Below, in pieces: positions 14,108 to 27,906 of a DNA stretch of 50,198 nucleotides. The notes beneath the pieces were generated by a model. It was not told where the DNA came from. It made no database searches and worked only from the letters and a program-made list of their open reading frames with translations. The stretch lies in assembly GCA_947306705.1 (NCBI GenBank), contig CAMZHD010000002.1, forward strand, positions 1 to 50,198, given 5' to 3'. Position numbers and translations under genes: made by a program. Every line of letters begins with the position of its first letter. The first letter of the stretch is position 1. Source of the DNA: an uncultured Bacillales bacterium (lineage in GTDB: Bacteria; Bacillota_I; Bacilli_A; RF39; UBA660).

Positions 14108-14145
14108 AAGAACTCACTGTTTTAGCTTTGAGTTCTTTTATTTAT
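14108..14145 (+). terminator. Rho-independent terminator
   Basis: AAGAACTCA / TGAGTTCTT stem, 12-nt loop, T-rich tail. Confidence 0.65.
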
Positions 14146-14189: not shown

Positions 14190-14219
14190 TTGTTCAAATT
14201 AGGCGGTTAGTGATATACT
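14190..14219 (+). promoter_or_regulatory. Candidate promoter of the SipW/TasA-like operon
   Basis: TTGTTC (14190-14195), 18-nt spacer, extended -10 TGaTATACT (14211-14219). Confidence 0.5.
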
Positions 14220-14286
14220 TAAATAGTAAAGTAGAATAGTGAGAAGATATCTTTACAACAAACGTTAGAATAAGGGAGGTGAAACA

Positions 14287-14832
14287 ATGAAAGGAGATAA
14301 AAAGATTCTAGCAGTAGCAATTTTAGTACTATTACTAACAGTATGTTTTGGTACTTACGCTATTTATAGAGCATCAGGAAGTGCAACTGGTACAGTTAAA
14401 GCAGCTGCTTGGTCAGTTAAAGTAGATGGAACTGATATTGCATCAGCAAATTATACATTTACTGCTGCCAATATTACATGGACAACATTAACTGGTTACA
14501 ACGATACAATTGCACCAGGTTCTGCAGGATATATTGAAATTCCAGTGGATGCTGATGGATCAGAAGTAGATGTAATTCTTACTGCTGAGTTAGGTTCTGT
14601 AACTGTTCCAAATGGAATGACTGTTGCTTTAGCAGAAGGTGCTGGTTCTCAAACAATTGGTTATTCAGCTACTGAAGGACAAATGGAAAAGAAAGTTAGA
14701 ATCAATATAGCATGGGCTGGTGCAGAATCAGATGATGCTGCAAAAGATGGTACTGATTTAGCTGCTCAAGGTTCTACAATTAGTATTCCAGTTACATTAA
14801 CAGCTAAACAATCATTAGTAGATCATCACTAA
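14287..14832 (+). CDS. TasA/camelysin-like secreted protein with SipW-type signal peptide (putative major fibre subunit)
   Basis: Very strong SD (AAGGGAGGTGA). N-terminus is basic, then hydrophobic, then GTYAIYRASGSATG. Ala/Gly/Thr/Ser-rich mature part. C-terminal W..G...DD...D....G....P..L.A.Q signature resembles TasA/CalY. Codon use differs from neighbours (GGT, GCT, ACT, GTT, TCT). Confidence 0.65.
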   Translation: MKGDKKILAVAILVLLLTVCFGTYAIYRASGSATGTVKAAAWSVKVDGTDIASANYTFTAANITWTTLTGYNDTIAPGSAGYIEIPVDADGSEVDVILTAELGSVTVPNGMTVALAEGAGSQTIGYSATEGQMEKKVRINIAWAGAESDDAAKDGTDLAAQGSTISIPVTLTAKQSLVDHH

Positions 14833-14940
14833 TAATAAGAAATAATATCGTAAAGAGTAATACATATTATTCTTTCGATTAAAGTTTATAAAGGGTTTTG
14901 TAAATTTTAAACGGGAGAATAATTTTTAGGAAGTGAAAAA

Positions 14941-16143
14941 ATGAAGAAACAAGATAATAAAGATAAAAATCAAAAAAGAGATAGAATTATTCAAATCATA
15001 TTAATAATCATAATAATATTATTGCTATTACATAATTGTTCTTTAGTGAAAAATAGAAACAAAGATGAAAATGGTAAAGTAAATATTATTGATATAACAA
15101 GTAATGATAAATGTGAGCAAGATGAAGTAATAGATTGTTTAGAGAATGAAGATAACAGTAAATGTATTGTTCCTGATTTTGTAGGAAAAGATAAGAAAGA
15201 TGTTTTAAAATGGCTTAGTTCTCTATCAAATACAATTGAATTAGAAATTGTAGTAGTAGAACAATCTGATGCGAAAGATGGAACGGTTGTAGATCAAACA
15301 CTAATTGGTTCAAAAGTAAAAGATTTAATTAAGAATAAGAAAAAATTAGTCATTACAATCGTAAATAATGGATCATTAGTAGATTGTGAAAAAGATAGTC
15401 AAAATAGTCAATGCAAATTACCTAACTTTGTAGGAGAAAAAGAAGAAGACGTAGTAAATTGGATGGATGTTCTTGCAAATCATATTAAAGTTAAATATGT
15501 ATATATGGATTCTAAAGAACCAGCTGGAACCATCATTAACCAATCAATCAGCGCTGGAAAAAATGTAAAAGATATTCTATCAGAAGATTTAACATTAATT
15601 ATTTATCTATCAAGAGGAAAAAAAGGGAATCCATCTACAGATGGTTCTATTCCTAGTAAACCATCAGAGCCAGATTCTGGTGAAGAGGAACCAATAACAG
15701 AAGATGACTTCTATGTAAATGATAAAGAAGTAGTAAAATGGGAAGATGAATCTAGTGTTAAAATATTTGAAGATTCAACTCATATTGCGAAAGTAAGAGG
15801 AAAGATTGCTCCTGAAAGTAGCGGTACATATAAGTTTACCGTAAACAATGGAACAAAATATAATTTAAAATATAAGATTACATTTACTGAAACCAATAAC
15901 AACAATATGAATATGAAATTTAAGTTAAAAAAGGGAGATACCTATTTAATAGATCATTACGTATCCTATAACGAGTTAAACATTGAAAATATGACATTAA
16001 ATGTTCAATCATCTGAAGATTATTATCTAGAATGGAAATGGGTAGGAGATAATGATACAAACGATACAACGATAGGTAATAAAGCTCAAAATACAGATAT
16101 AGAATATAATCTAGCAATTAAAGTAGAGGCAGAGAGTATATAA
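14941..16143 (+). CDS. Membrane-anchored protein with two PASTA domains and a C-terminal TasA-like domain
   Basis: N-terminal TM (IIQIILIIIIILLLL). PASTA-like units at 15163-15372 (VPDFVGKDKKDV...DGTVVDQ...LVITIVNNG) and 15412-15618 (LPNFVGEKEEDV...AGTIINQS...LIIYLSRG). C-terminus has GTYKFTVNNG...YYLEWKWVGDNDTNDT...LAIKVEAES. Confidence 0.65.
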   Translation: MKKQDNKDKNQKRDRIIQIILIIIIILLLLHNCSLVKNRNKDENGKVNIIDITSNDKCEQDEVIDCLENEDNSKCIVPDFVGKDKKDVLKWLSSLSNTIELEIVVVEQSDAKDGTVVDQTLIGSKVKDLIKNKKKLVITIVNNGSLVDCEKDSQNSQCKLPNFVGEKEEDVVNWMDVLANHIKVKYVYMDSKEPAGTIINQSISAGKNVKDILSEDLTLIIYLSRGKKGNPSTDGSIPSKPSEPDSGEEEPITEDDFYVNDKEVVKWEDESSVKIFEDSTHIAKVRGKIAPESSGTYKFTVNNGTKYNLKYKITFTETNNNNMNMKFKLKKGDTYLIDHYVSYNELNIENMTLNVQSSEDYYLEWKWVGDNDTNDTTIGNKAQNTDIEYNLAIKVEAESI

Positions 16144-16592
16144 TGGGTAAGATACTAAGAATATCATTCGACATTATATTAATCGCAATCATAATTCTAT
16201 TAAGTTTCTATTTTCTCCTAAGATTTATGGGAAAGGCAGAAATATATGAAGTAAAAACAGGTTCCATGGAAGATGGAATACATGCTGGAGATTATATTTT
16301 AATTGTAAAGAAAAAAGAATATAAAGTAGGAGATGTAGTAACTTATAAAAAAGATGGATATCACATCACACATAGAATCATTGAAAAAAATGGAGAAAAA
16401 GTTATTACAAAAGGAGATGCTAACAATGTTAGCGATGAAGAAATGGATGCATCAAAAATCGTAGGAAAAGTAATCATCCATGGAGGAATATTAAATATTC
16501 TAATAGATTTTAAATTTGTAATAGCAAGTGGGTTATTTGGAATATATTTACTTACTTGTTACTTTGAAAAGAAAGAAGAAAAAGAAAAATAA
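16143..16592 (+). CDS. sipW: Signal peptidase I, archaeal/ER type (SipW-like)
   Basis: N-terminal TM, catalytic-Ser box KTGSMED, GDVVTY, His box ITHRII, KGDANN. The start overlaps the upstream stop (TAATG). Confidence 0.8.
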   Translation: MGKILRISFDIILIAIIILLSFYFLLRFMGKAEIYEVKTGSMEDGIHAGDYILIVKKKEYKVGDVVTYKKDGYHITHRIIEKNGEKVITKGDANNVSDEEMDASKIVGKVIIHGGILNILIDFKFVIASGLFGIYLLTCYFEKKEEKEK

Positions 16593-16614
16593 TAATAAAG
16601 AAAGGAGTATTACT

Positions 16615-17088
16615 ATGAAGAAAATTATTTTTAAATCATTCTTATTAGTATCAGGAGTGGTACTTCTTTCATCTGTAGTACTTACTTTCGCTATTATGAG
16701 AATAAGAGGGAACAGTACTGGATCCATTAAAGCATCAACATGGAGTGTAACAAGAAACTATAGTCAACCAGGAGATTCAATAGAAATCTATAAAGAGGGA
16801 GAAACTGATAGTTATACTTTAACGGTAGAAAGTGCATCAGAGGTAGATGTTAAATACAAAATAATTATTTCGAATCTGCCAACTGGAGTAGAAGTAGATC
16901 TTGATAACACTGGATATGAATCACCAACAAACGGTTCTCTAACCATAGAAAAAACGAATATGATCATTAATTATAATGATTCAGTAAAAACAAAAACACA
17001 TACAATAACTTTTAGAGCGACGAATGCAGCGTCCCCTATAGCAAATCAAGAAATAAATATTGATGTAGAATTTAGACAAGATATTTAA
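16615..17088 (+). CDS. Second TasA/camelysin-like secreted protein with SipW-type signal peptide, 157 aa
   Basis: ATG 16615 with AAAGGAG SD; the track start at 16528 overlaps sipW in another frame. N-terminal motif LTFAIMRIRGNSTGSIKASTWSV parallels the 14287 gene. Confidence 0.65.
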   Translation: MKKIIFKSFLLVSGVVLLSSVVLTFAIMRIRGNSTGSIKASTWSVTRNYSQPGDSIEIYKEGETDSYTLTVESASEVDVKYKIIISNLPTGVEVDLDNTGYESPTNGSLTIEKTNMIINYNDSVKTKTHTITFRATNAASPIANQEINIDVEFRQDI

Positions 17089-17126
17089 TAATTATTAATA
17101 ATAGAGAAAGGAAGTGAAGTATAAAT

Positions 17127-20033
17127 ATGAAATATAGGCGATATATACTAATGATTGCTCTTTTTGCATTTCTATTCATTTTTTATACTTTTATAGATAA
17201 TTCTTTCTCTATCTATAGAGAAGTTAAAACAGATACAATTAACTTAAGTATTTTAGCTCCAAATAGTGTTCTTGTTACATTTAATCCAAATGGAGGAACA
17301 CTCGCAACAGAAGAGTCTACTAGAGAATTAAATGAGGGAGATGAAATTGGAACTTTACCAGTGCCAACGTATCAAGCACATCAATTTCTAGGATGGTATA
17401 CAGAACAAACAGGAGGAACGAAAATAAAGGAAACAACCATCGTAAATAGTTCAACTACTTATTATGCACGTTGGATTGAAAACGATTCTCCATTAAATTA
17501 TGTATTCTATATACCAGGAGAATGTAGTTTTACATCCACTGGACTACAAAATGGTTCGAATGGAGATTGTATTAGTACAATTAATCCAACAGAGGAAGAC
17601 ATTGACTATACAGAAAGTACATTATCAGCTAAAAGATATATTGATACTGGAGTAGCCGTCTATAACGCAATAAACCATGAAAATGACGTTGAAATAGGAT
17701 TTACAATAGTAAGATATAATTCCAATGAAAATGAATATAGAGCTACTTTAGTCAATACAAAAGCAGAAATAGATAATAGTCAATTAAAATATCCTGGATT
17801 TACATTTAGAAAGAAAGATAATTCAGGTAGTTACGTACTTCAATCAAGAAAAAATTATAGTTCAAACGCAGAAGTAACTCTTTCGCCAGCAGATGTACAA
17901 AGCGTTATTATTTATCGTACAGCCGGAGCAATTTATTATAGTATAAATGGGGGAACAAAAATCAAGGTAAATGATGCATATAATCCTATATTTGATTTAA
18001 ATGCTTGGTTTGGTGCAGCTCCACAAAATGAAGATGCATCAGTTGCACAAAGATTTTTTATTGGTACCTTAAGTAAAATGTATATCAAACTTGAACCACC
18101 TGAGATGATGACAATAACATTTAATCCAAATTATGAAGGGGCAACAACGACAACGAAAGAAGTTGCAAAATCAGGTCCTATAGGAGATCTGCCAACCCCA
18201 ACAAGAGAAGGATTTGCATTCTTAGGATGGTTTACAGAAGCAACCAATGGAACACAAATAGATTCAAATACAATCATTACAACAAATATTACTTATTATG
18301 CTCATTGGATAGAAAGTGTAACAGTTACCCTTCATCCAAATGAAGGGCAAGTTACTCCAACAACTATCACAGTACCAATTAATACAGCAGTAGGTACACT
18401 TCCTACACCAACAAAAACGAATTATACCTTTGCCGGATGGTATCAAGATACGAATTTAACAATTCCAGCAAACTCTGAAACAATTATTACAGAAGATACA
18501 GATTTCTATGCTAAATGGTTACAAAGTGTAACGGTTACATTAAACGCAAATAATGGTACAGTTAGTCCAAGTACAATAAAGGTTGGACAAGGAACTGCAG
18601 TTGGTACACTTCCAACTCCAGAAAGAGAAGGATATACATTTGATGGATGGTATCAAGAACCTGAATTAACAAATCTCGCAACATCAGAAACAATCGTTAC
18701 AGAGAATACCACTTATTATGCAAAATGGATTGAAAATATAACCATTACATTAAATGCAGATGGAGGAACTGTAACTCCTACAACGATTGTAATTCCTAAA
18801 GGAACTGCTATTGGAGAATTACCAGTACCAGAATTGACTGATTACGACTTTGTTGGATGGTATACAGATAATACATATGCAACGCAAGTTACAGAACAAA
18901 CAGTATTTAATGCATCTACTACAATCATTGCAAAATGGGAAGAAACCGTGTATGTTGCTTGTATAGGAAATACATGCTATAACTCAATTCAAAAAGCAGT
19001 TAACGCTGTAACAGCAAATAACACAAAAACAACCATAACAATCATTAGTGATGTTGAGCCAACAGATGTTACAACAATCCCAAGAAATAAATGGGTAGAG
19101 TTAGATATCGGTTCATATACAATATCTACTCCTCTAAATTCATCTTATTCAATATTCAAAAATCAAGGAACATTAGATGTAATTAACGGAACAATTACAA
19201 GTAGAGGTGGATATATCTTTGAAAACCTAAGTGGATCAACCTTAAATATTAAAGGTGGAACATTTACTTATAACAATACAAATCATACTGAAAGCAAGGT
19301 TATTGAAATAAAAGGTGGAACTGTTTATATAACAGGTGGAACCCTTACATGTAATTCAAAAGCAGCAGTCATCAACGTTAACACAGGTGGAACCTTAAAT
19401 GTATCAGGTGGTACAATTAAAGGATTAAATACATTTAAAGGACAAGCTGTATATAATAACGGTGGAACAACAACCGTTAGTGGAACCGCTTATCTAGAGA
19501 ACAATTCACGTGCTGCCGTTGATAACGGTAGAGCTGCTCTACATAATAATGCCGGTACTATGACGATTCTAGGCGGAACAATTATCAGTAATAATAATGC
19601 AGCCGTTAAGAATAATGATATTATGACAATAGGAGATAACACCAATCCAATTGATACAACAACTCCTGTCATGCAAGGAAGTACTTATGGTCTAGAAATT
19701 GCAGATGGTAAGACTGTAACAATCTATGATGGTATCTTCAAAGGAAAAGGAAACACCACAGATAAAGCAATTAATGATGAAAGTTTAGTAACCTTAGATA
19801 ATGCGGAAATTGATCATACAACAGAAACAATTGATAATGAACAATATGATGTTGCTTATCTTGTAGAAACCCTAAACAACAATGGTACAAACTCTAACAA
19901 AGGAAAAGATGAGTCAGAAACAAATGATACACAATCCTTTAAAGAAATGAATTCATTTGGAGAGTTACCAATAACAAAAAAAGAGAATCCTGAATTTCTA
20001 GATGATTTGAAGAAATTAACGGTGGGTAAATAG
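17127..20033 (+). CDS. Large secreted repeat protein, 968 aa: Listeria-Bacteroides repeats, a lectin-like insert and a beta-helix-like region
   Basis: N-terminal TM followed by NSFSIYRE. Five ~69-aa units of the type TFNPNGG...LP.P.R.GY.F.GWY....G......T......YYA.W. GGTxxIxGGT-type repeats at about 19165-19640. Confidence 0.7.
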   Translation: MKYRRYILMIALFAFLFIFYTFIDNSFSIYREVKTDTINLSILAPNSVLVTFNPNGGTLATEESTRELNEGDEIGTLPVPTYQAHQFLGWYTEQTGGTKIKETTIVNSSTTYYARWIENDSPLNYVFYIPGECSFTSTGLQNGSNGDCISTINPTEEDIDYTESTLSAKRYIDTGVAVYNAINHENDVEIGFTIVRYNSNENEYRATLVNTKAEIDNSQLKYPGFTFRKKDNSGSYVLQSRKNYSSNAEVTLSPADVQSVIIYRTAGAIYYSINGGTKIKVNDAYNPIFDLNAWFGAAPQNEDASVAQRFFIGTLSKMYIKLEPPEMMTITFNPNYEGATTTTKEVAKSGPIGDLPTPTREGFAFLGWFTEATNGTQIDSNTIITTNITYYAHWIESVTVTLHPNEGQVTPTTITVPINTAVGTLPTPTKTNYTFAGWYQDTNLTIPANSETIITEDTDFYAKWLQSVTVTLNANNGTVSPSTIKVGQGTAVGTLPTPEREGYTFDGWYQEPELTNLATSETIVTENTTYYAKWIENITITLNADGGTVTPTTIVIPKGTAIGELPVPELTDYDFVGWYTDNTYATQVTEQTVFNASTTIIAKWEETVYVACIGNTCYNSIQKAVNAVTANNTKTTITIISDVEPTDVTTIPRNKWVELDIGSYTISTPLNSSYSIFKNQGTLDVINGTITSRGGYIFENLSGSTLNIKGGTFTYNNTNHTESKVIEIKGGTVYITGGTLTCNSKAAVINVNTGGTLNVSGGTIKGLNTFKGQAVYNNGGTTTVSGTAYLENNSRAAVDNGRAALHNNAGTMTILGGTIISNNNAAVKNNDIMTIGDNTNPIDTTTPVMQGSTYGLEIADGKTVTIYDGIFKGKGNTTDKAINDESLVTLDNAEIDHTTETIDNEQYDVAYLVETLNNNGTNSNKGKDESETNDTQSFKEMNSFGELPITKKENPEFLDDLKKLTVGK
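17268..17474 (+). repeat. Isolated Listeria-Bacteroides (Flg_new-type) repeat unit, coding
   Basis: VLVTFNPNGGTL...FLGWYTEQTGGTKI...TYYARW. Confidence 0.7.
18108..18938 (+). repeat. Tandem array of four ~207-210-bp coding repeats (Listeria-Bacteroides repeat units)
   Basis: Each unit ends in YYA(H/K)W, with ends at about 18308, 18518, 18728 and 18938. Units share GT/GDLPTP..EG(Y/F).F.GW(Y/F). Confidence 0.75.
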
Positions 20034-20059
20034 TCTAGACTAATACCCACCTTTCTTTT
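20021..20059 (+). terminator. Rho-independent terminator closing the SipW/TasA-like operon
   Basis: GGTGGGTA...TACCCACC stem spanning the stop codon, followed by TTTCTTTT. Confidence 0.75.
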
Positions 20060-21300: not shown

Positions 21301-21331
21301 AAAAAGTCAGGAAATTATTTCCTGGCTTTTT
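21301..21331. terminator. Bidirectional terminator between convergent genes
   Basis: A-run, then GTCAGGAAA-TTA-TTTCCTGGC, then T-run. Confidence 0.7.
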
Positions 21332-22955
21332 ATTGATTAAAAGTCTTTTGATAAGCTTTTTTAACTTCTTCATTTTCTTTAGCACTAGTTGGTAGATTTT
21401 CGTATTCTCTAAGCATTTTTTCTTTTAATTGATCTTCTAATTGCTTTTGAGTAACAATTTCATTCTTAGCAATTCTATATTCTTGTTTTCCTTCCATTAA
21501 ATCAAGATTGTTTTCTTTTCTTTGTTTTCTAGTTAAAAGGAATTTTTCTCTATATTTTCTTTTCCAAAAATCAAGATTTAAGATAATAGATAAACCAATT
21601 ACTAAAGCACTTAAAAAATGACCTATAATTCTTTTATTAAATGAAGAAACAACTCTATCTTTCTTAGTAAAATCTCTATCTTTTTTAAGAATTGCATATT
21701 TATTTTCAGTATAACCAAAATCGGCAGGTCTTTCTTCTAATTCTTCAACCTGAGAAGATGTTTGTACTACCGTTGTATTTGGATCAAGATAATCTTTTAA
21801 ATTCTCATGTTGATCAAATTCAGATTCATCAACTCTATATACATAATCAGTTCTCTTATAACCTTCTCTAAATACTCCTGGTTCTTCCCATGGGGTATAT
21901 TCTACAATAATTAAATCCTCATCTTTTCCAGTTTGATAATCAACTGAGTAAGAAGTTGTATCCGTAGTACTATCATATATAGTAGTTGTAGTTTCATAAG
22001 CTGGTGCAGTTGAGATAGCATAATCAATTAGAACACCACCACTTATACCTAACGAAACAATAAGTGCTTGAATAAAAGCAGCAATTCTCTGTCTTTTAGA
22101 TTCATAATTAATCTGCTCCTTCTTTTTTTGAGTATTTGCAATTTTAGCAGAAGCAGCATTCTTATTAGCCAAAGCATCAACTTGTCTCTCACGAATTCTT
22201 TCAATCTCTTCAGCTTCATCAATGAATTTTTGAGTATTTGCAGAAGTAATATCAGGATTCTTATATAAAGCAAGTAATACTAATAATCTTTTATCTAAAA
22301 CACTAGAATTATAATTATGATTCATCATTCTTTTCGTTTTTAATTCTGAATATAAACGTTGTAGTTCATTATCTTCAACATTCTTTAAGTCATTCTCACA
22401 AAGTTCCGCAATATAACTAACATCCGTAGGATCCGTATTGATTCTTTGTAATAACTTACTTCCATTAGAATAGATTAATTCCATTTGCATAGCTCTATAA
22501 ACAAGATCATAGACACGATTAACCATTCTTTCTTCTGTATCATAATTAATATTAGAAGATTTTTTAATATCACATAATACATTTAAAACACGATTTACTA
22601 ACAATTCTATAGAAGATTCATCTGCTGTTTCCAACAATTTGTCTATTTCTTTACATTCACAATGAATCTTATAATATAATGCCCAATCTTTTTTTAATTT
22701 ACCATTTTCACTATCTAAAACGGCTTCATATTTTTTATAGATATTTAAAACAGAATCTGGTAAATAATCATAAGCAACTGCTCCTGAAAATGAAGTATAT
22801 GCACTTTGAACTTCCTTTTTTACAGTAGCATCAATGGCATTAACTTTATCTTCGATTGATTTTGTATTAAGGCCTAATTCTTTTAGACGAGCTATCGTAG
22901 CTTTTATCTCCTTTTTAGTTCCTTCATACATAATACCATGGTCAAGTTCAACCAT
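21330..22955 (-). CDS. Hypothetical two-TM protein, 541 aa, with a large helical N-terminal domain
   Basis: Long ORF. TM segments IAAFIQALIVSLGISGGVLI and IIGHFLSALVIGLSIILNL flank a Thr-rich ~150-aa loop. No recognisable motif. Confidence 0.65.
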   Translation of the reverse strand: MVELDHGIMYEGTKKEIKATIARLKELGLNTKSIEDKVNAIDATVKKEVQSAYTSFSGAVAYDYLPDSVLNIYKKYEAVLDSENGKLKKDWALYYKIHCECKEIDKLLETADESSIELLVNRVLNVLCDIKKSSNINYDTEERMVNRVYDLVYRAMQMELIYSNGSKLLQRINTDPTDVSYIAELCENDLKNVEDNELQRLYSELKTKRMMNHNYNSSVLDKRLLVLLALYKNPDITSANTQKFIDEAEEIERIRERQVDALANKNAASAKIANTQKKKEQINYESKRQRIAAFIQALIVSLGISGGVLIDYAISTAPAYETTTTIYDSTTDTTSYSVDYQTGKDEDLIIVEYTPWEEPGVFREGYKRTDYVYRVDESEFDQHENLKDYLDPNTTVVQTSSQVEELEERPADFGYTENKYAILKKDRDFTKKDRVVSSFNKRIIGHFLSALVIGLSIILNLDFWKRKYREKFLLTRKQRKENNLDLMEGKQEYRIAKNEIVTQKQLEDQLKEKMLREYENLPTSAKENEEVKKAYQKTFNQ

Positions 22956-24424: not shown

Positions 24425-25132
24425 TTATTTTTGAATAGAATAATCCCTTTTATCGCGAAGAAAGATAAAACGAGTATCACTTAATAAATCTGGATATACA
24501 GTCATATAATGATCAGAATGAACAAGTTCATGATGCTCAACACACCATTTATTTAGATAAGATTCATCATGCCAGACAGCAAAGATACATCTACTTGTAT
24601 CATATTCAATCATTTTTAATACATCCTTACACATTTGTTTTATAAGAGATGTTTTTCCGAAGAAAAAACCAGATTGAATATAAGAATAGGTCTTATTTTC
24701 TAAATAAGCAGAAGAATACGGATTAAGATGAATCTTAGACCATAAATCATAAGATACTTGGTCATTATCAAATGAATGATAAGATACATTCAGTTTATGA
24801 AAAATAAATAGTTCTTCTTTATGAGGATGAATAACCGCATTCCCATTGAAATAGCAGGAATATTCATAAGAATCATCTATATTCTCTAAAATATGCCACA
24901 TTTTATATAAAGCAATAATTGGCCAAGGATAATGATTAATCCTAGGACATAATTCTACTTTCACAAGACCCTTTTCATACTGATCATATTCTTCTAATCC
25001 ATCAGATATTAGTTTTACTGTTTTAGGATTATTCGGATAAAAATTTTGTAATGACTCTAAGAATTCTGAAAACAAAATTTTATAGGGACCAGTTGCGATA
25101 TAGAATATTGCTAATTTGTCTGTATCTTTCAT
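24425..25132 (-). CDS. Glycosyltransferase family 6 (bacterial NxN type)
   Basis: FAVWHDESYLNKW matches AVWHDESHLNKY of mammalian ABO/GT6. SGFFFG matches GGFFGG. YFNGN sits where eukaryotic GT6 has DVD. Start moved to ATG 25132 (AGGAGTG SD). Confidence 0.8.
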   Translation of the reverse strand: MKDTDKLAIFYIATGPYKILFSEFLESLQNFYPNNPKTVKLISDGLEEYDQYEKGLVKVELCPRINHYPWPIIALYKMWHILENIDDSYEYSCYFNGNAVIHPHKEELFIFHKLNVSYHSFDNDQVSYDLWSKIHLNPYSSAYLENKTYSYIQSGFFFGKTSLIKQMCKDVLKMIEYDTSRCIFAVWHDESYLNKWCVEHHELVHSDHYMTVYPDLLSDTRFIFLRDKRDYSIQK

Positions 25133-25245
25133 CTTATCACTCCTATGATACATTATAGCATATAGAAAAAATAGAAAAAACAATATCATATCATTTACAT
25201 CATTCTATCTATATATTATAATTTAAATATAATAGGAGAGAAGTT

Positions 25246-27906
25246 ATGAAAAACAAAGTATTGATTATATTGATGACAATAGTATTAGTATTTCCGTTTT
25301 ATATCTTCGCAGAATCAAACGTTGTAATTAATAACCTAATAGTTGAAGAAACAGAAGGAAATGCAAGTGATAATAAAAGTAGTGTAGATAATAATCAAGT
25401 CATATTAAATCCAAACCTTAATTTTGAAAAAGACAGTATTACATATAAACTTGTAATCCAAAATCCTACAAATGAATATTATACATTAGATAATAATATT
25501 ACAACTGCTTCTAAATACTTTGACTATTCCGTCTCAATTGATGGAAATAGTAAAACGCTAAAAGGTCATGAAGAGAAAAATGTATATATTAAAATAGATT
25601 ATAAAAATGAAGTACCTGAATCGTTATTCCAAGAAGGAATATTTAATGAAAAAGAAGACTATGCTATAGTTTTATCAAAACAAATGAACCCAGCAACAAG
25701 GAACAATTTATTGATTGTATTAGCGCTCATTTTGGGATTATTTATAGTTACTTATCTTAAATTCAAAAACAAGAAACAGATAAATGCAGTATTGATTTTT
25801 GGGTTATTAATATTTCCAAACCTAATACATGCAGATAATTCCATTACTTTAAATGTAAAACTAGATATCGAAGTAGAAAATATTGCAGAATTTGATACAG
25901 GTAAAGTAGTAAATAAAAAATTATTAAATATGAATCATGATTATTCTATTAGCGGTTTTATTAGAAATGAAACTTTACCAACTTCAATTAAAACACTAGT
26001 TGAGAATCAATTAAATAGTGCAAATGAAGTAGTTATAACGGATGATCAAGTAGAAGAAGAATTACAAACAATTCTAGGAGAAAATTGGAGATATATAGAT
26101 CACATAGAATATAATCAAGAAAATGAAATTGAAAGAATCTGTTTAGAAGATGAGGATTGTTCATTAAAAGAAGAATTCACAAACTGGTTTATAGACAGTT
26201 TTGTATATTTAATTCAAAATAATAATTCAATGCAATATCTTATATATGACCAAAATACGTTTGAAATAAAATTGATTGATGAGAATTCTTTTATAAAAAA
26301 ATTAAAAAAGAAATTATTAAATGACCAAAAAGAAGATATTCTAAAAAACGTATTATCTTCCGAAAGATCCAATCATATTATTTATTCTTGGTATGACGAG
26401 GATACGTCTACAGTATATTATTACTGTGATCGAAAGAATATCTATTTTAATCCAGATTCATCTTATTTCTTTTCAACTTTAACAAATATGAATAATCTAT
26501 CAGATACAGGAAATATCAACACATCTAAGGTAATAAATATGAAATCAATGTTTGCATCTACAGGTGCTTATACAGATCTTCATACAGATATATCAAATTG
26601 GGATACTTCAAAAGTAACAGATATGAGTGCAATGTTTTATTATTCAGGTTATGAAGCATCAGATTGGTTTATTGGAGACCTATCCAATTGGGACGTTTCA
26701 AAAGTAACAGATATGAGTTATATGTTTGATACTACAGGAGTATATAATGACACTTGGTTCGTAGGAGACTTGTCCAATTGGGATACATCAAACGTCACAA
26801 ATATGGCAGGAATGTTTAGTGGCGCAGGTGAGGCAAGCAAAACTTGGAATATAGGGGACATATCTAAATGGAATACTTCAAATGTAACCGATATGAGCGA
26901 AATGTTTGCGATTACAGGCACATATATGAAGAATTATACAATGAATCTATCTACTTGGGATACATCAAGCGTCACAAATATGTATAGAATGTTTGACGGA
27001 ATTGGACGATATTCTGATACATGGAATTTAATAGGAATAGAAAATTGGGACACATCAAATGTAGAAAATATGAGCTATATGTTTGCAACAGCCTGCATTA
27101 CTGCAGAATTATGTTCCTTAGATCTATCTACTTGGGATACATCTAGTATTACTGATTTAAACAACATTTTTTCAGAATTTGGAAGGAATTCAAATAAAGT
27201 AGAATTAAATTTACAAAAAATTATAGTTAATGACAATGAAATATTAAAAAGTTTGATTCCACCTTTAATTGAAACAAAAGAAATACATATTGATTTAGCC
27301 AATATGAATACAACAGCTGTCACCAATTTTGATTATTTATTCTTATCATTAGGCTATAGAAGTAACAAAATATATATCGATGTGTCAAATTGGGATACTT
27401 CAAATGTAACATCAATGAAATATACATTTGCAGGCATAGGTGCGTGGAATGCTGATACGGTGGTTGTTACCGGACTTGAAACTTGGAATACATCAAATGT
27501 AACCGATATGAGTTATATGTTCAGTGACTTTGGAAAAGCAGCAGACAACTGGGATATAGTAGGATTTGATAATTGGGATATGAGTAATGTCACCGATATG
27601 AACAGTATGTTTCTAATAAATTCATATCCATATACTGAAACTTCGAACACTATTCATAATTTAGGCAATATAGATATCTATAATGCAAATACAGCATCGA
27701 TGTTTTCAGGAAGAACTAATGTGAAAGCAACGATAAATTTACATGAAAAATTAACAGATTTCAACAACATGTTTTCCAAAGTCGCAACTTTTGACGGAGC
27801 AGAAGTAGTAGTAAACTATGCAAATATAGTAGATAATATTGATAGTATCATTGCAACAAAAAACAATTCAAATTCAAATGTAATAAAAGGCAAGATGCTA
27901 GAATAA
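25246..27906 (+). CDS. DUF285/BspA-like leucine-rich-repeat surface protein, 886 aa
   Basis: Signal peptide and about 12 units of the type NWDTS.VT.M..MF. An internal TM hairpin is described in the findings. Confidence 0.8.
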   Translation: MKNKVLIILMTIVLVFPFYIFAESNVVINNLIVEETEGNASDNKSSVDNNQVILNPNLNFEKDSITYKLVIQNPTNEYYTLDNNITTASKYFDYSVSIDGNSKTLKGHEEKNVYIKIDYKNEVPESLFQEGIFNEKEDYAIVLSKQMNPATRNNLLIVLALILGLFIVTYLKFKNKKQINAVLIFGLLIFPNLIHADNSITLNVKLDIEVENIAEFDTGKVVNKKLLNMNHDYSISGFIRNETLPTSIKTLVENQLNSANEVVITDDQVEEELQTILGENWRYIDHIEYNQENEIERICLEDEDCSLKEEFTNWFIDSFVYLIQNNNSMQYLIYDQNTFEIKLIDENSFIKKLKKKLLNDQKEDILKNVLSSERSNHIIYSWYDEDTSTVYYYCDRKNIYFNPDSSYFFSTLTNMNNLSDTGNINTSKVINMKSMFASTGAYTDLHTDISNWDTSKVTDMSAMFYYSGYEASDWFIGDLSNWDVSKVTDMSYMFDTTGVYNDTWFVGDLSNWDTSNVTNMAGMFSGAGEASKTWNIGDISKWNTSNVTDMSEMFAITGTYMKNYTMNLSTWDTSSVTNMYRMFDGIGRYSDTWNLIGIENWDTSNVENMSYMFATACITAELCSLDLSTWDTSSITDLNNIFSEFGRNSNKVELNLQKIIVNDNEILKSLIPPLIETKEIHIDLANMNTTAVTNFDYLFLSLGYRSNKIYIDVSNWDTSNVTSMKYTFAGIGAWNADTVVVTGLETWNTSNVTDMSYMFSDFGKAADNWDIVGFDNWDMSNVTDMNSMFLINSYPYTETSNTIHNLGNIDIYNANTASMFSGRTNVKATINLHEKLTDFNNMFSKVATFDGAEVVVNYANIVDNIDSIIATKNNSNSNVIKGKMLE
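26470..27612 (+). repeat. Array of DUF285-type coding repeats (~75-85 bp periodicity)
   Basis: Recurring (N/T)W(D/N)TS(K/N/S)VT(D/N)M..MF. Confidence 0.8.

Follow-up and report, generated by a model that had tools for sequence, protein, structure and literature searches.

In Bacillus subtilis, TasA polymerises via its mature N-terminal strand (residues 28-38), which completes the next subunit, and TapA has a similar N-terminal strand and nucleates the fibres (PMC9674648, PMC10151520). The BsaA oligomers of Clostridium perfringens have been proposed to remain tethered to the membrane through their newest subunit until SipW cuts, and paralogues of TasA and BsaA cluster with signal peptidases and large surface proteins, for which heteropolymers have been suggested (PMC11580942). 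The cleavage site of TasA is a poor substrate for LepB owing to an aromatic residue at P2', which hinders that enzyme (PMC10269814). The roles so far attributed to TasA-type fibres are those of a matrix scaffold in Bacillus and Clostridium and of a bundling pilus in archaea. Here we describe a cassette of five co-oriented open reading frames (ORFs), g1 to g5, which spans positions 14287-20033 of a 50,198-nucleotide stretch of contig CAMZHD010000002.1 (assembly GCA_947306705.1; the whole stretch is hereafter called the window) from an uncultured Bacillales bacterium. An original prediction, made by a model from the sequence alone, had read this locus as an uncharacterised variant of a SipW-dependent fibre system. 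That core reading proved to be the best supported of those we weighed, although its details concerning TasA-like proteins, tapA and PASTA domains had to be corrected. On balance we lean towards a cassette that encodes a cell-surface fibre of beta-sandwich subunits, remote relatives of TasA, BsaA and AbpA, whose formation would be enabled by a signal peptidase of the SEC11/SipW type.

The tapA-sipW-tasA operon of B. subtilis resembles the cassette in several respects. In both, a peptidase of the endoplasmic reticulum (ER)/archaeal type is encoded among its substrates (predicted substrates in the cassette), and the gene upstream of the peptidase overlaps it (PMC10151520). The cleavage site, a predicted one in the cassette, has in both the form T-[aromatic]-A followed by x-[aromatic], and the major subunit is a beta-sandwich whose mature N-terminus serves as donor strand, which for the cassette is a prediction. 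Each system also has an accessory protein with a subunit-like strand, TapA there and g5 here. The two differ in that the cassette subunits lie outside PF12389, NF046066 and TIGR04088 and are about 155 aa in their mature form compared with 234 aa, in that the g3 peptidase fails the Bacillus SipW equivalog NF046067 (44.8 bits, cutoff 190), and in gene order. Additions in the cassette are a membrane-anchored protein with an acceptor domain, another small paralogue and an Flg_new adhesin of 1000-2000 aa.

The sipW-bsaA-bsaB-bsaC locus of C. perfringens likewise combines a SipW-type peptidase with two TasA-like paralogues and a larger interaction-domain protein, and the model published for it, a tethered polymer in which SipW cleavage frees each new donor strand (PMC11580942), is the mechanism that we propose for the cassette. 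In contrast to that locus, the cassette gives no TIGR04090 match, has no sortase nearby and shows no visible dependence on type IV pili, and it has a dedicated anchored acceptor protein that is not reported for BsaA systems. The N-E-K isopeptide triad is not evident among the invariant residues of the cassette proteins, a comparison in which no proper test of it was made. The archaeal AbpA pili and CanA cannulae also consist of donor-strand subunits with a beta-sandwich or jelly-roll that are detectable only by profile or fold, and both AbpA (7UEG) and CanA (9HDI) are among the fold matches of the cassette, the matches being weak (AbpA E = 0.057). AbpA is followed by a larger protein, AbpB, proposed to initiate or adhere, whereas the archaeal systems have no dedicated peptidase in their operon (PMC9245690). 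Finally, the logic that we infer for the cassette is that of chaperone-usher pili (Fim, Pap, CFA/I), namely a tip adhesin that only donates, shaft subunits with a dual role and a PapH-like base terminator, and several such pilins are among the top fold matches. The cassette has no chaperone, usher or outer membrane, however, and the likeness is one of design rather than of membership.

Membership of the cassette in three established pilus classes was considered and rejected. For sortase pili, no LPXTG-like motif, C-terminal anchor or sortase was found in the operon and ten neighbouring genes, and g1 to g5 themselves have neither the motif nor a C-terminal hydrophobic anchor. For type IV pili, the cleavage site lies after rather than before the hydrophobic segment, and no PilD, PilB or PilC was found in the operon and its neighbours. 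Chaperone-usher membership was rejected as well. The claim that the locus has neither a sortase nor a pilus ATPase thus stands for the five genes and their neighbours, as searched with Pfam and NCBIfam.

The general kind of system is already known from tapA-sipW-tasA and sipW-bsaA-bsaB-bsaC. New here are a large family of subunits that no current model covers, a conserved acceptor-only paralogue that is anchored in the membrane and coupled to the peptidase, and a giant Flg_new protein with a subunit-like N-terminal strand, together with a covarying hairpin after the putative major subunit gene. In the literature that we searched, no combination of TasA or SipW with PASTA domains or Listeria-Bacteroides repeats was found.

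Signal peptides, the g3 peptidase and the subunit domains

The signal peptides of g1, g4 and g5 end in [small]-[F/Y]-[A/S], followed by I-[Y/M]-R, and the three N-terminal motifs quoted in the original prediction are exact. Their hydrophobic regions comprise 16-20 residues and lead into this conserved small-aromatic-small site. A six-frame search of the whole window for a hydrophobic run followed by [small][FYW][ASG][ILVMA][YFMW][RKNSTQ] found only g1, g4 and g5. The motif is conserved among the g4 homologues. It is absent from g2, as had been noted for the 400-aa protein, and from all 36 complete g2 homologues. A resemblance to the GTFAYF-type SipW-cognate signal had also been proposed. This holds for the T-[FYW]-A core followed by x-[FYM], the only part of g1, g4 and g5 that resembles that signal, but it does not extend to a match with TIGR04088, a model of 34 positions with a cutoff of 19 bits to which the control, TasA, scored 38 bits in the same run.

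The g3 protein scores above the cutoff of TIGR02228, the model of archaeal/ER-type signal peptidase I (76.1 bits, cutoff 51.85), matches Peptidase_S24 and S26 in Pfam, and has hydrophobic segments at its N- and C-terminus. Ser41 (GSME), His77 (THR) and Asp92 (KGDANN) align to the motifs of human SEC11A/C, and none of the three residues varies in six homologues, whose identity goes as low as 39%. The TIGR02228 score and the SEC11A/C alignment confirm the peptidase type and the three motifs that had been assigned, and the Ser/His dyad, whose absence from an alignment had been named as grounds for abandoning the idea, is present. Judged by its motifs and by NF046067, g3 is SipW-like in type and in context, and not a SipW orthologue. 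From sequence, it is very likely that g3 processes g1, g4 and g5.

The candidate for the major fibre subunit is g1, which is the first gene of the cassette and has its strongest ribosome-binding site (RBS; AAGGGAGGTG). The AlphaFold2 (AF2) model of g1 has a predicted local distance difference test (pLDDT) score of 91.6, and its top PDB match in Foldseek is the TasA fibre 8AUR (E = 2.1e-4, probability 1.00). The next matches are the PapG pilin domain, CfaB, CS17, PapE and AbpA, all of them donor-strand subunits. An hhalign comparison of the g1 family (87 sequences) with the TasA family (36 sequences) gave 74% and E = 2.8e-5 over 82 columns. In its register, T23-Y24-A25/I26-Y27 of g1 falls on T25-W26-A27/A28-F29 of TasA, which is the known SipW site, and IAPGS of g1 falls on LKPGD of TasA.

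The g4 protein was modelled as a beta-sandwich (pLDDT 83.6). Its fold matches include FimG, the PapG pilin domain, CanA and BslA; the first 50 Foldseek matches do not include TasA, and the g4 family compared with TasA by hhalign gave 0.5%. With the N-terminus removed, the core of g4 aligns with the core of g1 at 95.5% (hhalign, E = 1.4e-8), and the first 44 residues of the two proteins are 43% identical. The C-terminal 150 residues of g2 align with the g1 core at 96.5% (E = 7e-10), and the g4 core gave no significant direct match to the g2 C-domain (2%). By these profile alignments, the C-terminal domain of g2 is a beta-sandwich module paralogous to g1 and g4, and of the three g4 is joined to the TasA-related family, and to the g2 C-domain, only through g1. 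The label 'TasA-like' given to g1 and g4 in the original prediction appears to hold only remotely: a distant link of g1 stands, whereas family membership by hidden Markov model does not.

None of 87 diverse members of the g1 family matches the PF12389, TasA, BsaA or TIGR04088 models, and none of the 994 ORFs in 80 related loci matches the TasA profile. As a positive control, real TasA scored 509 bits against the TasA model and its relatives all matched PF12389. TasA itself weakly matches TIGR04090 and TIGR04089, so both of these models were in the library. Direct family assignment of g1 and g4 was also attempted by Pfam, NCBIfam and PDB sequence searches, using single sequences as well as 19- and 87-sequence profiles, and found nothing meaningful. 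The g1 family itself is large, with 1135 representative clusters at E <= 1e-3 (about 1100 at 50% identity), and g1 has 314 cluster-level relatives at 90% clustering. There is no Pfam or NCBIfam model for it, and its members, in which no Pfam domain was found, are unnamed save for occasional generic labels such as 'hypothetical protein' and 'uncharacterized membrane protein'. The clusters of g1 to g4 from the window are also unnamed, and the exact g5 sequence is absent from the cluster collection.

A g1-like N-terminal module with the signal motif also occurs fused to DUF285 repeats or Flg_new repeats in other proteins, namely P0250 (526 aa, GCA_016648615.1) and P0323 (928 aa, L015:4929-7715). 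In L015 the fusion gene is solitary, and the surrounding 5 kb or so contain no peptidase. The module is thus also in use as a handle at the N-terminus of other surface proteins.

The g2 protein had been called PASTA-TasA-like, which is right insofar as its C-terminal domain is a paralogue of g1. PASTA domains are indeed present in this membrane protein (PF03793, 45.8 bits in two stretches, cutoff 23.2), but they do not define the system, as only 13 of 42 complete g2 homologues have a PASTA region. The homologues are mostly of 200-300 aa and consist of a transmembrane segment and a g1-like domain. Across these sequences PASTA is accessory, and the transmembrane segment and the g1-like C-terminal domain form the conserved part of g2. 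At the end of the transmembrane segment, H-(N/S)-C is conserved in 30 of 36 metagenomic homologues. In g2 itself (residues ~16-36, 14986-15050) this His-(Asn/Ser)-Cys ends the hydrophobic segment and is followed by a basic patch (LLLHNCSLIKKK). Given that g2 is translationally coupled with the peptidase, H-N-C may mark a contact or modification site. We also considered g2 as a lipoprotein and rejected this. The lipobox has the pattern [LVI][ASTVI][GAS]C, which neither LLHNC nor ILLC fits.

The g5 protein matches PF09479 Flg_new in five stretches (211.3 bits) and TIGR02543 (105 bits). Its repeat positions are approximate, as they derive from tblastn self-similarity and the Pfam stretch count, and a BLAST of g5 against itself gave no off-diagonal matches at 1e-4. 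Over the signal peptide and the residues that directly follow the predicted cut, the N-terminus of g5 aligns with that of g1 at 95.9% (hhalign, E = 5.5e-9), and in 28 g5-like proteins a conserved IYRE..D.I.LS leads directly into the first Flg_new repeat. Residues ~613-905 look like a beta-helix, as judged by composition and repeat pattern only. From the standpoint of function, the claim that no gene of the locus resembles tapA is open to doubt: g5 follows the logic of TapA, with a subunit-like N-terminal strand on a body in which no acceptor domain was detected, and g2 occupies the position of tapA, overlapping the peptidase gene.

In most relatives the g5 homologue has 1900-2200 aa, about twice the 968 aa found in the window. 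Such long versions occur in L002 (12867-19265), L001, L005, L008, L009 and L011, and a 968-aa version like that of the window was found in L019. In the L002 protein there are ten Flg_new repeats and, at the C-terminus, a Y_phosphatase3-like domain (E = 5.5e-18) that would not be expected in a surface adhesin.

When sorted by strand and acceptor groove, the four proteins fall into three types. The strand only is present in g5, both the strand and the acceptor domain are present in g1 and g4, and the acceptor domain only is present in g2.

Gene order and RNA elements in related loci

Eleven species-level genomes carry g1. All are metagenome-assembled genomes from sheep, goat and other gut samples and are labelled Bacilli, Erysipelotrichaceae, 'Mycoplasma' or Bacillales. 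The order g1-g2-g3-g4-g5 is kept in all nine genome loci that extend past g1; seven of these reach g5, L003 ends within g2 and L010 within g5. We also gathered 80 metagenome loci via the peptidase (38-82% identity). In these, g1 lies upstream in 29/30 loci, a g4/g1-like gene directly downstream of the peptidase in 48/56, and an ORF of at least 600 aa downstream in 17/25. A gene with the g2 C-domain lies directly upstream of the peptidase in 43 of the 54 testable loci, its place being taken in the other 11 by a g1-family gene, and g2 and the peptidase gene overlap or abut in 22/42. The gene order thus recurs in about 90 related loci, which answers the call of the original prediction for a survey of how widely it occurs.

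Neighbourhoods of distant g1 representatives mostly lie on short contigs and were uninformative. The informative one was L012, whose g1 is only about 30% identical and whose cassette has the same layout: a g1-like gene, a protein with a transmembrane segment and g2 C-domain but without PASTA, the peptidase, two g1-like genes and a large glycine-rich protein. The two extra g1-like genes have cleavage-type sites, SYA/RF and SYA/KY, and the large glycine-rich protein looks like a beta-helix. A variant cassette was seen in L078, L083, L089, L090, L092 and L094. It has no gene with the g2 C-domain and consists, in this order, of a ~1607-aa ORF, a g1-family gene, a longer peptidase (244-412 aa) and sometimes another g1-like gene.

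Promoter-like matches occur at chance level in this AT-rich window (51 found, 53.8 expected). The promoter call upstream of g1 is supported because its -35 (consensus TTGACA) and TG/TATACT -10 elements are kept at the same position in 10 related loci, and the extended -10 is exactly as the original prediction had described it. That prediction also took the cassette for a single unit under this one promoter; the promoter stands, but a simple unit does not, since g1 and g2 are separated by a conserved hairpin that resembles a terminator. The -10 is closely followed by a leader inverted repeat in which the lack of variation leaves no covariation signal. From its position and conservation it could be a messenger RNA (mRNA) stabiliser or a regulatory site.

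The hairpin in the g1-g2 spacer folds with -22.5 kcal/mol (z = -5.1) and was found in all 11 related loci. In their alignment 93.8% of cells are paired and 7 pairs have compensatory changes; none of 500 shuffles scored as high, and controls slid along the alignment were 43-55% paired. An Rfam search of the operon assigned no family to the hairpin, its sole match being a chance microRNA (E = 0.7). The hairpin may act as a partial terminator or as a 3' stabiliser and so raise g1 expression above that of the downstream genes. In close relatives an upstream AAAGAATAAT segment could pair with the 5' arm of the hairpin in an attenuator-like arrangement. This alternative pairing is 93.6% paired but almost invariant, and because the helix varies so little, covariation neither supports nor rejects it.

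Assembly model and alternatives

In the fibre model that we favour, g3 would cut after A25 in g1, A26 in g4 and S28 in g5. The presence of a dedicated peptidase would be explained by the aromatic P2' residue (Tyr in g1 and g5), which is reported to make TasA a poor substrate of LepB. Cleavage would free the N-terminal strand (IYR...), and donor-strand exchange of the TasA and BsaA kind would place this strand in the beta-sandwich of the subunit that follows. That g1 polymerises by such strand exchange is a prospect that we judge slightly favourable from its strand and domain. As a strand is present and no acceptor domain was detected, g5 could only start a chain, and would therefore come to lie at the distal tip, displaying its Flg_new repeats and its beta-helix-like adhesin region. 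The shaft would be made of g1 as the major subunit and g4 as a minor subunit or adaptor. Conversely, g2 has the acceptor domain and no strand, so that it could only end a chain, fixing the fibre to the cell via an uncleaved membrane anchor, and in this clade its PASTA domains would bind peptidoglycan. Owing to the hairpin and T-run that follow g1, its mRNA would be more abundant than that of the downstream genes, in keeping with the ratio of major to minor subunits. We put forward this polarity (g5 at the tip, g1 and g4 in the shaft, g2 at the base), read from the distribution of strands and domains, as a tentative model that we would not call probable.

A broader claim is a little more doubtful than the polarity itself, namely that, in addition to sortase and type IV pili, Gram-positive-type bacteria have an adhesive pilus of a third design, represented by the cassette. 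This would be a donor-strand-exchange pilus that grows tip first and from its base. SEC11-type cleavage would arm the donor strands, a giant Flg_new adhesin without a groove would start the chain, and an anchored paralogue with a groove and without a strand, translationally coupled to the peptidase, would stop its growth, while structured RNA would set the subunit ratio.

A number of results weigh against the fibre model. The TM-scores of g1 to 8AUR are 0.38/0.32 with a root-mean-square deviation (RMSD) of 7.6, and across the fold matches of g1 the TM-scores are low (0.3-0.46) and the RMSDs high. The monomer model of g1 has no strand at residues 23-44. The profile link between g1 and TasA is modest and covers mainly the signal peptide, the N-terminal strand and the first hairpin. 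The top fold matches of g4 are CBM2 carbohydrate-binding domains, and its beta-sandwich is generic. Neither PF12389 Peptidase_M73 nor NF046066 matches g1, g2 or g4 at E <= 1, the BsaA models TIGR04090 and TIGR04089 do not match g1 or g4 at E <= 1, and TIGR04088 does not match the first 65 residues of g1, g4 or g5 even at E <= 10. The T-run behind the spacer hairpin is short and is missing in some relatives. Furthermore, not every cassette has an anchor or terminator, since 11/54 loci have no g2 next to the peptidase. In this model, cleavage, polymerisation and polarity are each an inference.

Several of these points would be met by a processing module without a fibre, in which the peptidase matures separately acting beta-sandwich proteins and a large adhesin, for instance for binding carbohydrate or host, the aromatic P2' sites being poor substrates for the housekeeping signal peptidase. 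The best matches of g4 to CBM2 and other generic beta-sandwiches, the low TM-scores to fibre subunits, the lack of any TasA, BsaA or TIGR04088 match and the ruminant-gut habitat, in which carbohydrate binding is common, are all consistent with it. We nonetheless consider it unlikely. The conserved IYR... segment is common to three otherwise different proteins, one of them the 968-aa adhesin, and the specificity of the peptidase would hardly account for this by itself. Moreover, a membrane protein with the same domain and without this segment is conserved beside the peptidase, and nearly all the best fold matches of g1 are donor-strand fibre subunits. An only slightly less probable alternative keeps the fibre and gives up its attachment: as with B. 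subtilis TasA, g1 would polymerise outside the cell into a released matrix fibre nucleated by g5 or g4, and g2 would be an assembly factor on the membrane side or a partner of the peptidase, and not a terminal subunit. This has the closest characterised precedent (PMC9674648, PMC10151520), and g2 overlaps the peptidase gene as tapA overlaps sipW (PMC10151520). The conserved H-N-C of the g2 transmembrane segment suggests a role at the membrane face, and the 11/54 cassettes without g2 beside the peptidase also fit a released fibre. A fibre-end subunit is a good fit, however, for the C-terminal domain of g2, which is paralogous to g1, sits on a long extracellular linker and in this clade is accompanied by PASTA domains. 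Unlike TapA, g5 is adhesin-like, with many repeats and a very large size (about 2000 aa in relatives).

It is also conceivable, and far less probable than either of these, that the hydrophobic segments of g1, g4 and g5 are uncleaved anchors of a membrane-tethered surface complex, the peptidase having another role or a single substrate. AF2 draws the N-termini as long helices, as this would have it. The length of the hydrophobic regions and the small-aromatic-small site that follows them speak for signal peptides instead; the site aligns with the experimentally known site of TasA, and a dedicated peptidase with intact catalytic residues is conserved alongside. Moreover, the system has its true anchor in g2, which lacks the site.

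If the anchored-fibre model is right, the cassette suggests that the chemistry of TasA-type fibres has become a modular, cell-anchored and adhesin-tipped appendage in uncultured ruminant-gut Bacilli. With about 1100 clusters and no Pfam or NCBIfam entry, its subunit family is invisible to current annotation. The parts list predicts an order of assembly, from strand only through strand plus groove to groove only. The model would then open a way to study surface attachment in little-known gut Bacilli, and would provide a natural donor-strand fibre with a built-in terminator outside the chaperone-usher systems of Gram-negative bacteria.

Cassette boundaries and neighbouring genes

The features of the cassette are listed in Table 1. 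All five ORFs lie at the coordinates originally claimed for them, and the overlap of the g2 stop with the g3 start reads TAATG, as had been reported. The length of 157 aa is also that of the g4 homologues. The two flanking terminators described in the original prediction are both present as hairpins with T-runs, which fall outside the loop-length rule of a simple terminator scanner.

Table 1. Features of the g1-g5 cassette, in window coordinates (aa, amino acids or residues; nt, nucleotides)
Feature	Position	Strand	Details
Terminator hairpin of the preceding Ppx/GppA-like gene; upstream cassette boundary	14108-14145	+	stem GAACTCA/TGAGTTC, then T-run; -13.0 kcal/mol
Promoter	14190-14219	+	-35 TTGTTC 14190-14195, 18-nt spacer, TG-extended -10 TGATATACT 14211-14219
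5' leader inverted repeat GTAAAG...CTTTAC	14226-14256	+	both arms invariant in 10/10 loci aligned
g1	14287-14832	+	ORF, 181 aa
g1 domains			signal peptide aa 1-25; predicted cleavage TYA25 then I26YR; predicted strand ~aa 26-45; beta-sandwich core ~aa 46-178
g1-g2 spacer hairpin and T-run	14866-14923 and 14924-14927	+	58 nt, TTTT, then g2 RBS
g2	14941-16143	+	ORF, 400 aa
g2 domains			basic N-terminus; transmembrane segment ~aa 16-30 ending HNC; two PASTA ~aa 75-142 and 158-226; Pro/Ser/Glu linker; C-terminal g1-like domain aa 250-400 (nt 15688-16140), without strand motif
g3	16143-16592	+	ORF, 149 aa
g4	16615-17088	+	ORF, 157 aa, counted from the ATG behind AAAGGAG; putative minor g1-paralogous subunit; predicted cleavage TFA26 then I27MR
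g5	17127-20033	+	ORF, 968 aa
g5 domains			predicted cleavage SFS28 then I29YRE; g1-like N-terminal strand straight into Flg_new repeat 1; region ~aa 119-321 without assignment; Flg_new 2-5 ~aa 322-612; T/N/G-rich ~aa 613-905
Terminator overlapping the g5 stop codon; downstream boundary	20021-20059	+	GGTGGGTA...TACCCACC then TTTCTTTT; -15.6 kcal/mol

The window DNA has 29% G+C. Upstream of the cassette lie an HD-domain gene, a nitroreductase-like gene and a Ppx/GppA-like gene, and downstream lie two NUDIX genes and ORFs without family assignment. The upstream terminator is not kept in relatives, where the upstream genes differ. Since none of the five flanking genes tested adjoins the cassette in related genomes, the cassette is, by this comparison of gene content, a self-contained unit.

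Three further ORFs were noted downstream. A 541-aa ORF (21330-22955, minus strand) is convergent with the downstream neighbours of the cassette. It has no Pfam family, and by eye its N-terminal half is charged and coiled-coil-like and two hydrophobic segments can be seen. A 254-aa ORF (24425-25189, minus strand) matches Glycosyltransferase family 6 (E = 2.3e-8, 33.6 bits, cutoff 25), a family best known from animal blood-group transferases and, to our knowledge, uncommon among bacteria. Finally, an 886-aa protein encoded at 25246-27906 on the plus strand, about 5 kb downstream of the cassette, has four stretches of the DUF285 ('Mycoplasma protein') repeat (E = 1.2e-70) and is another large candidate surface protein.

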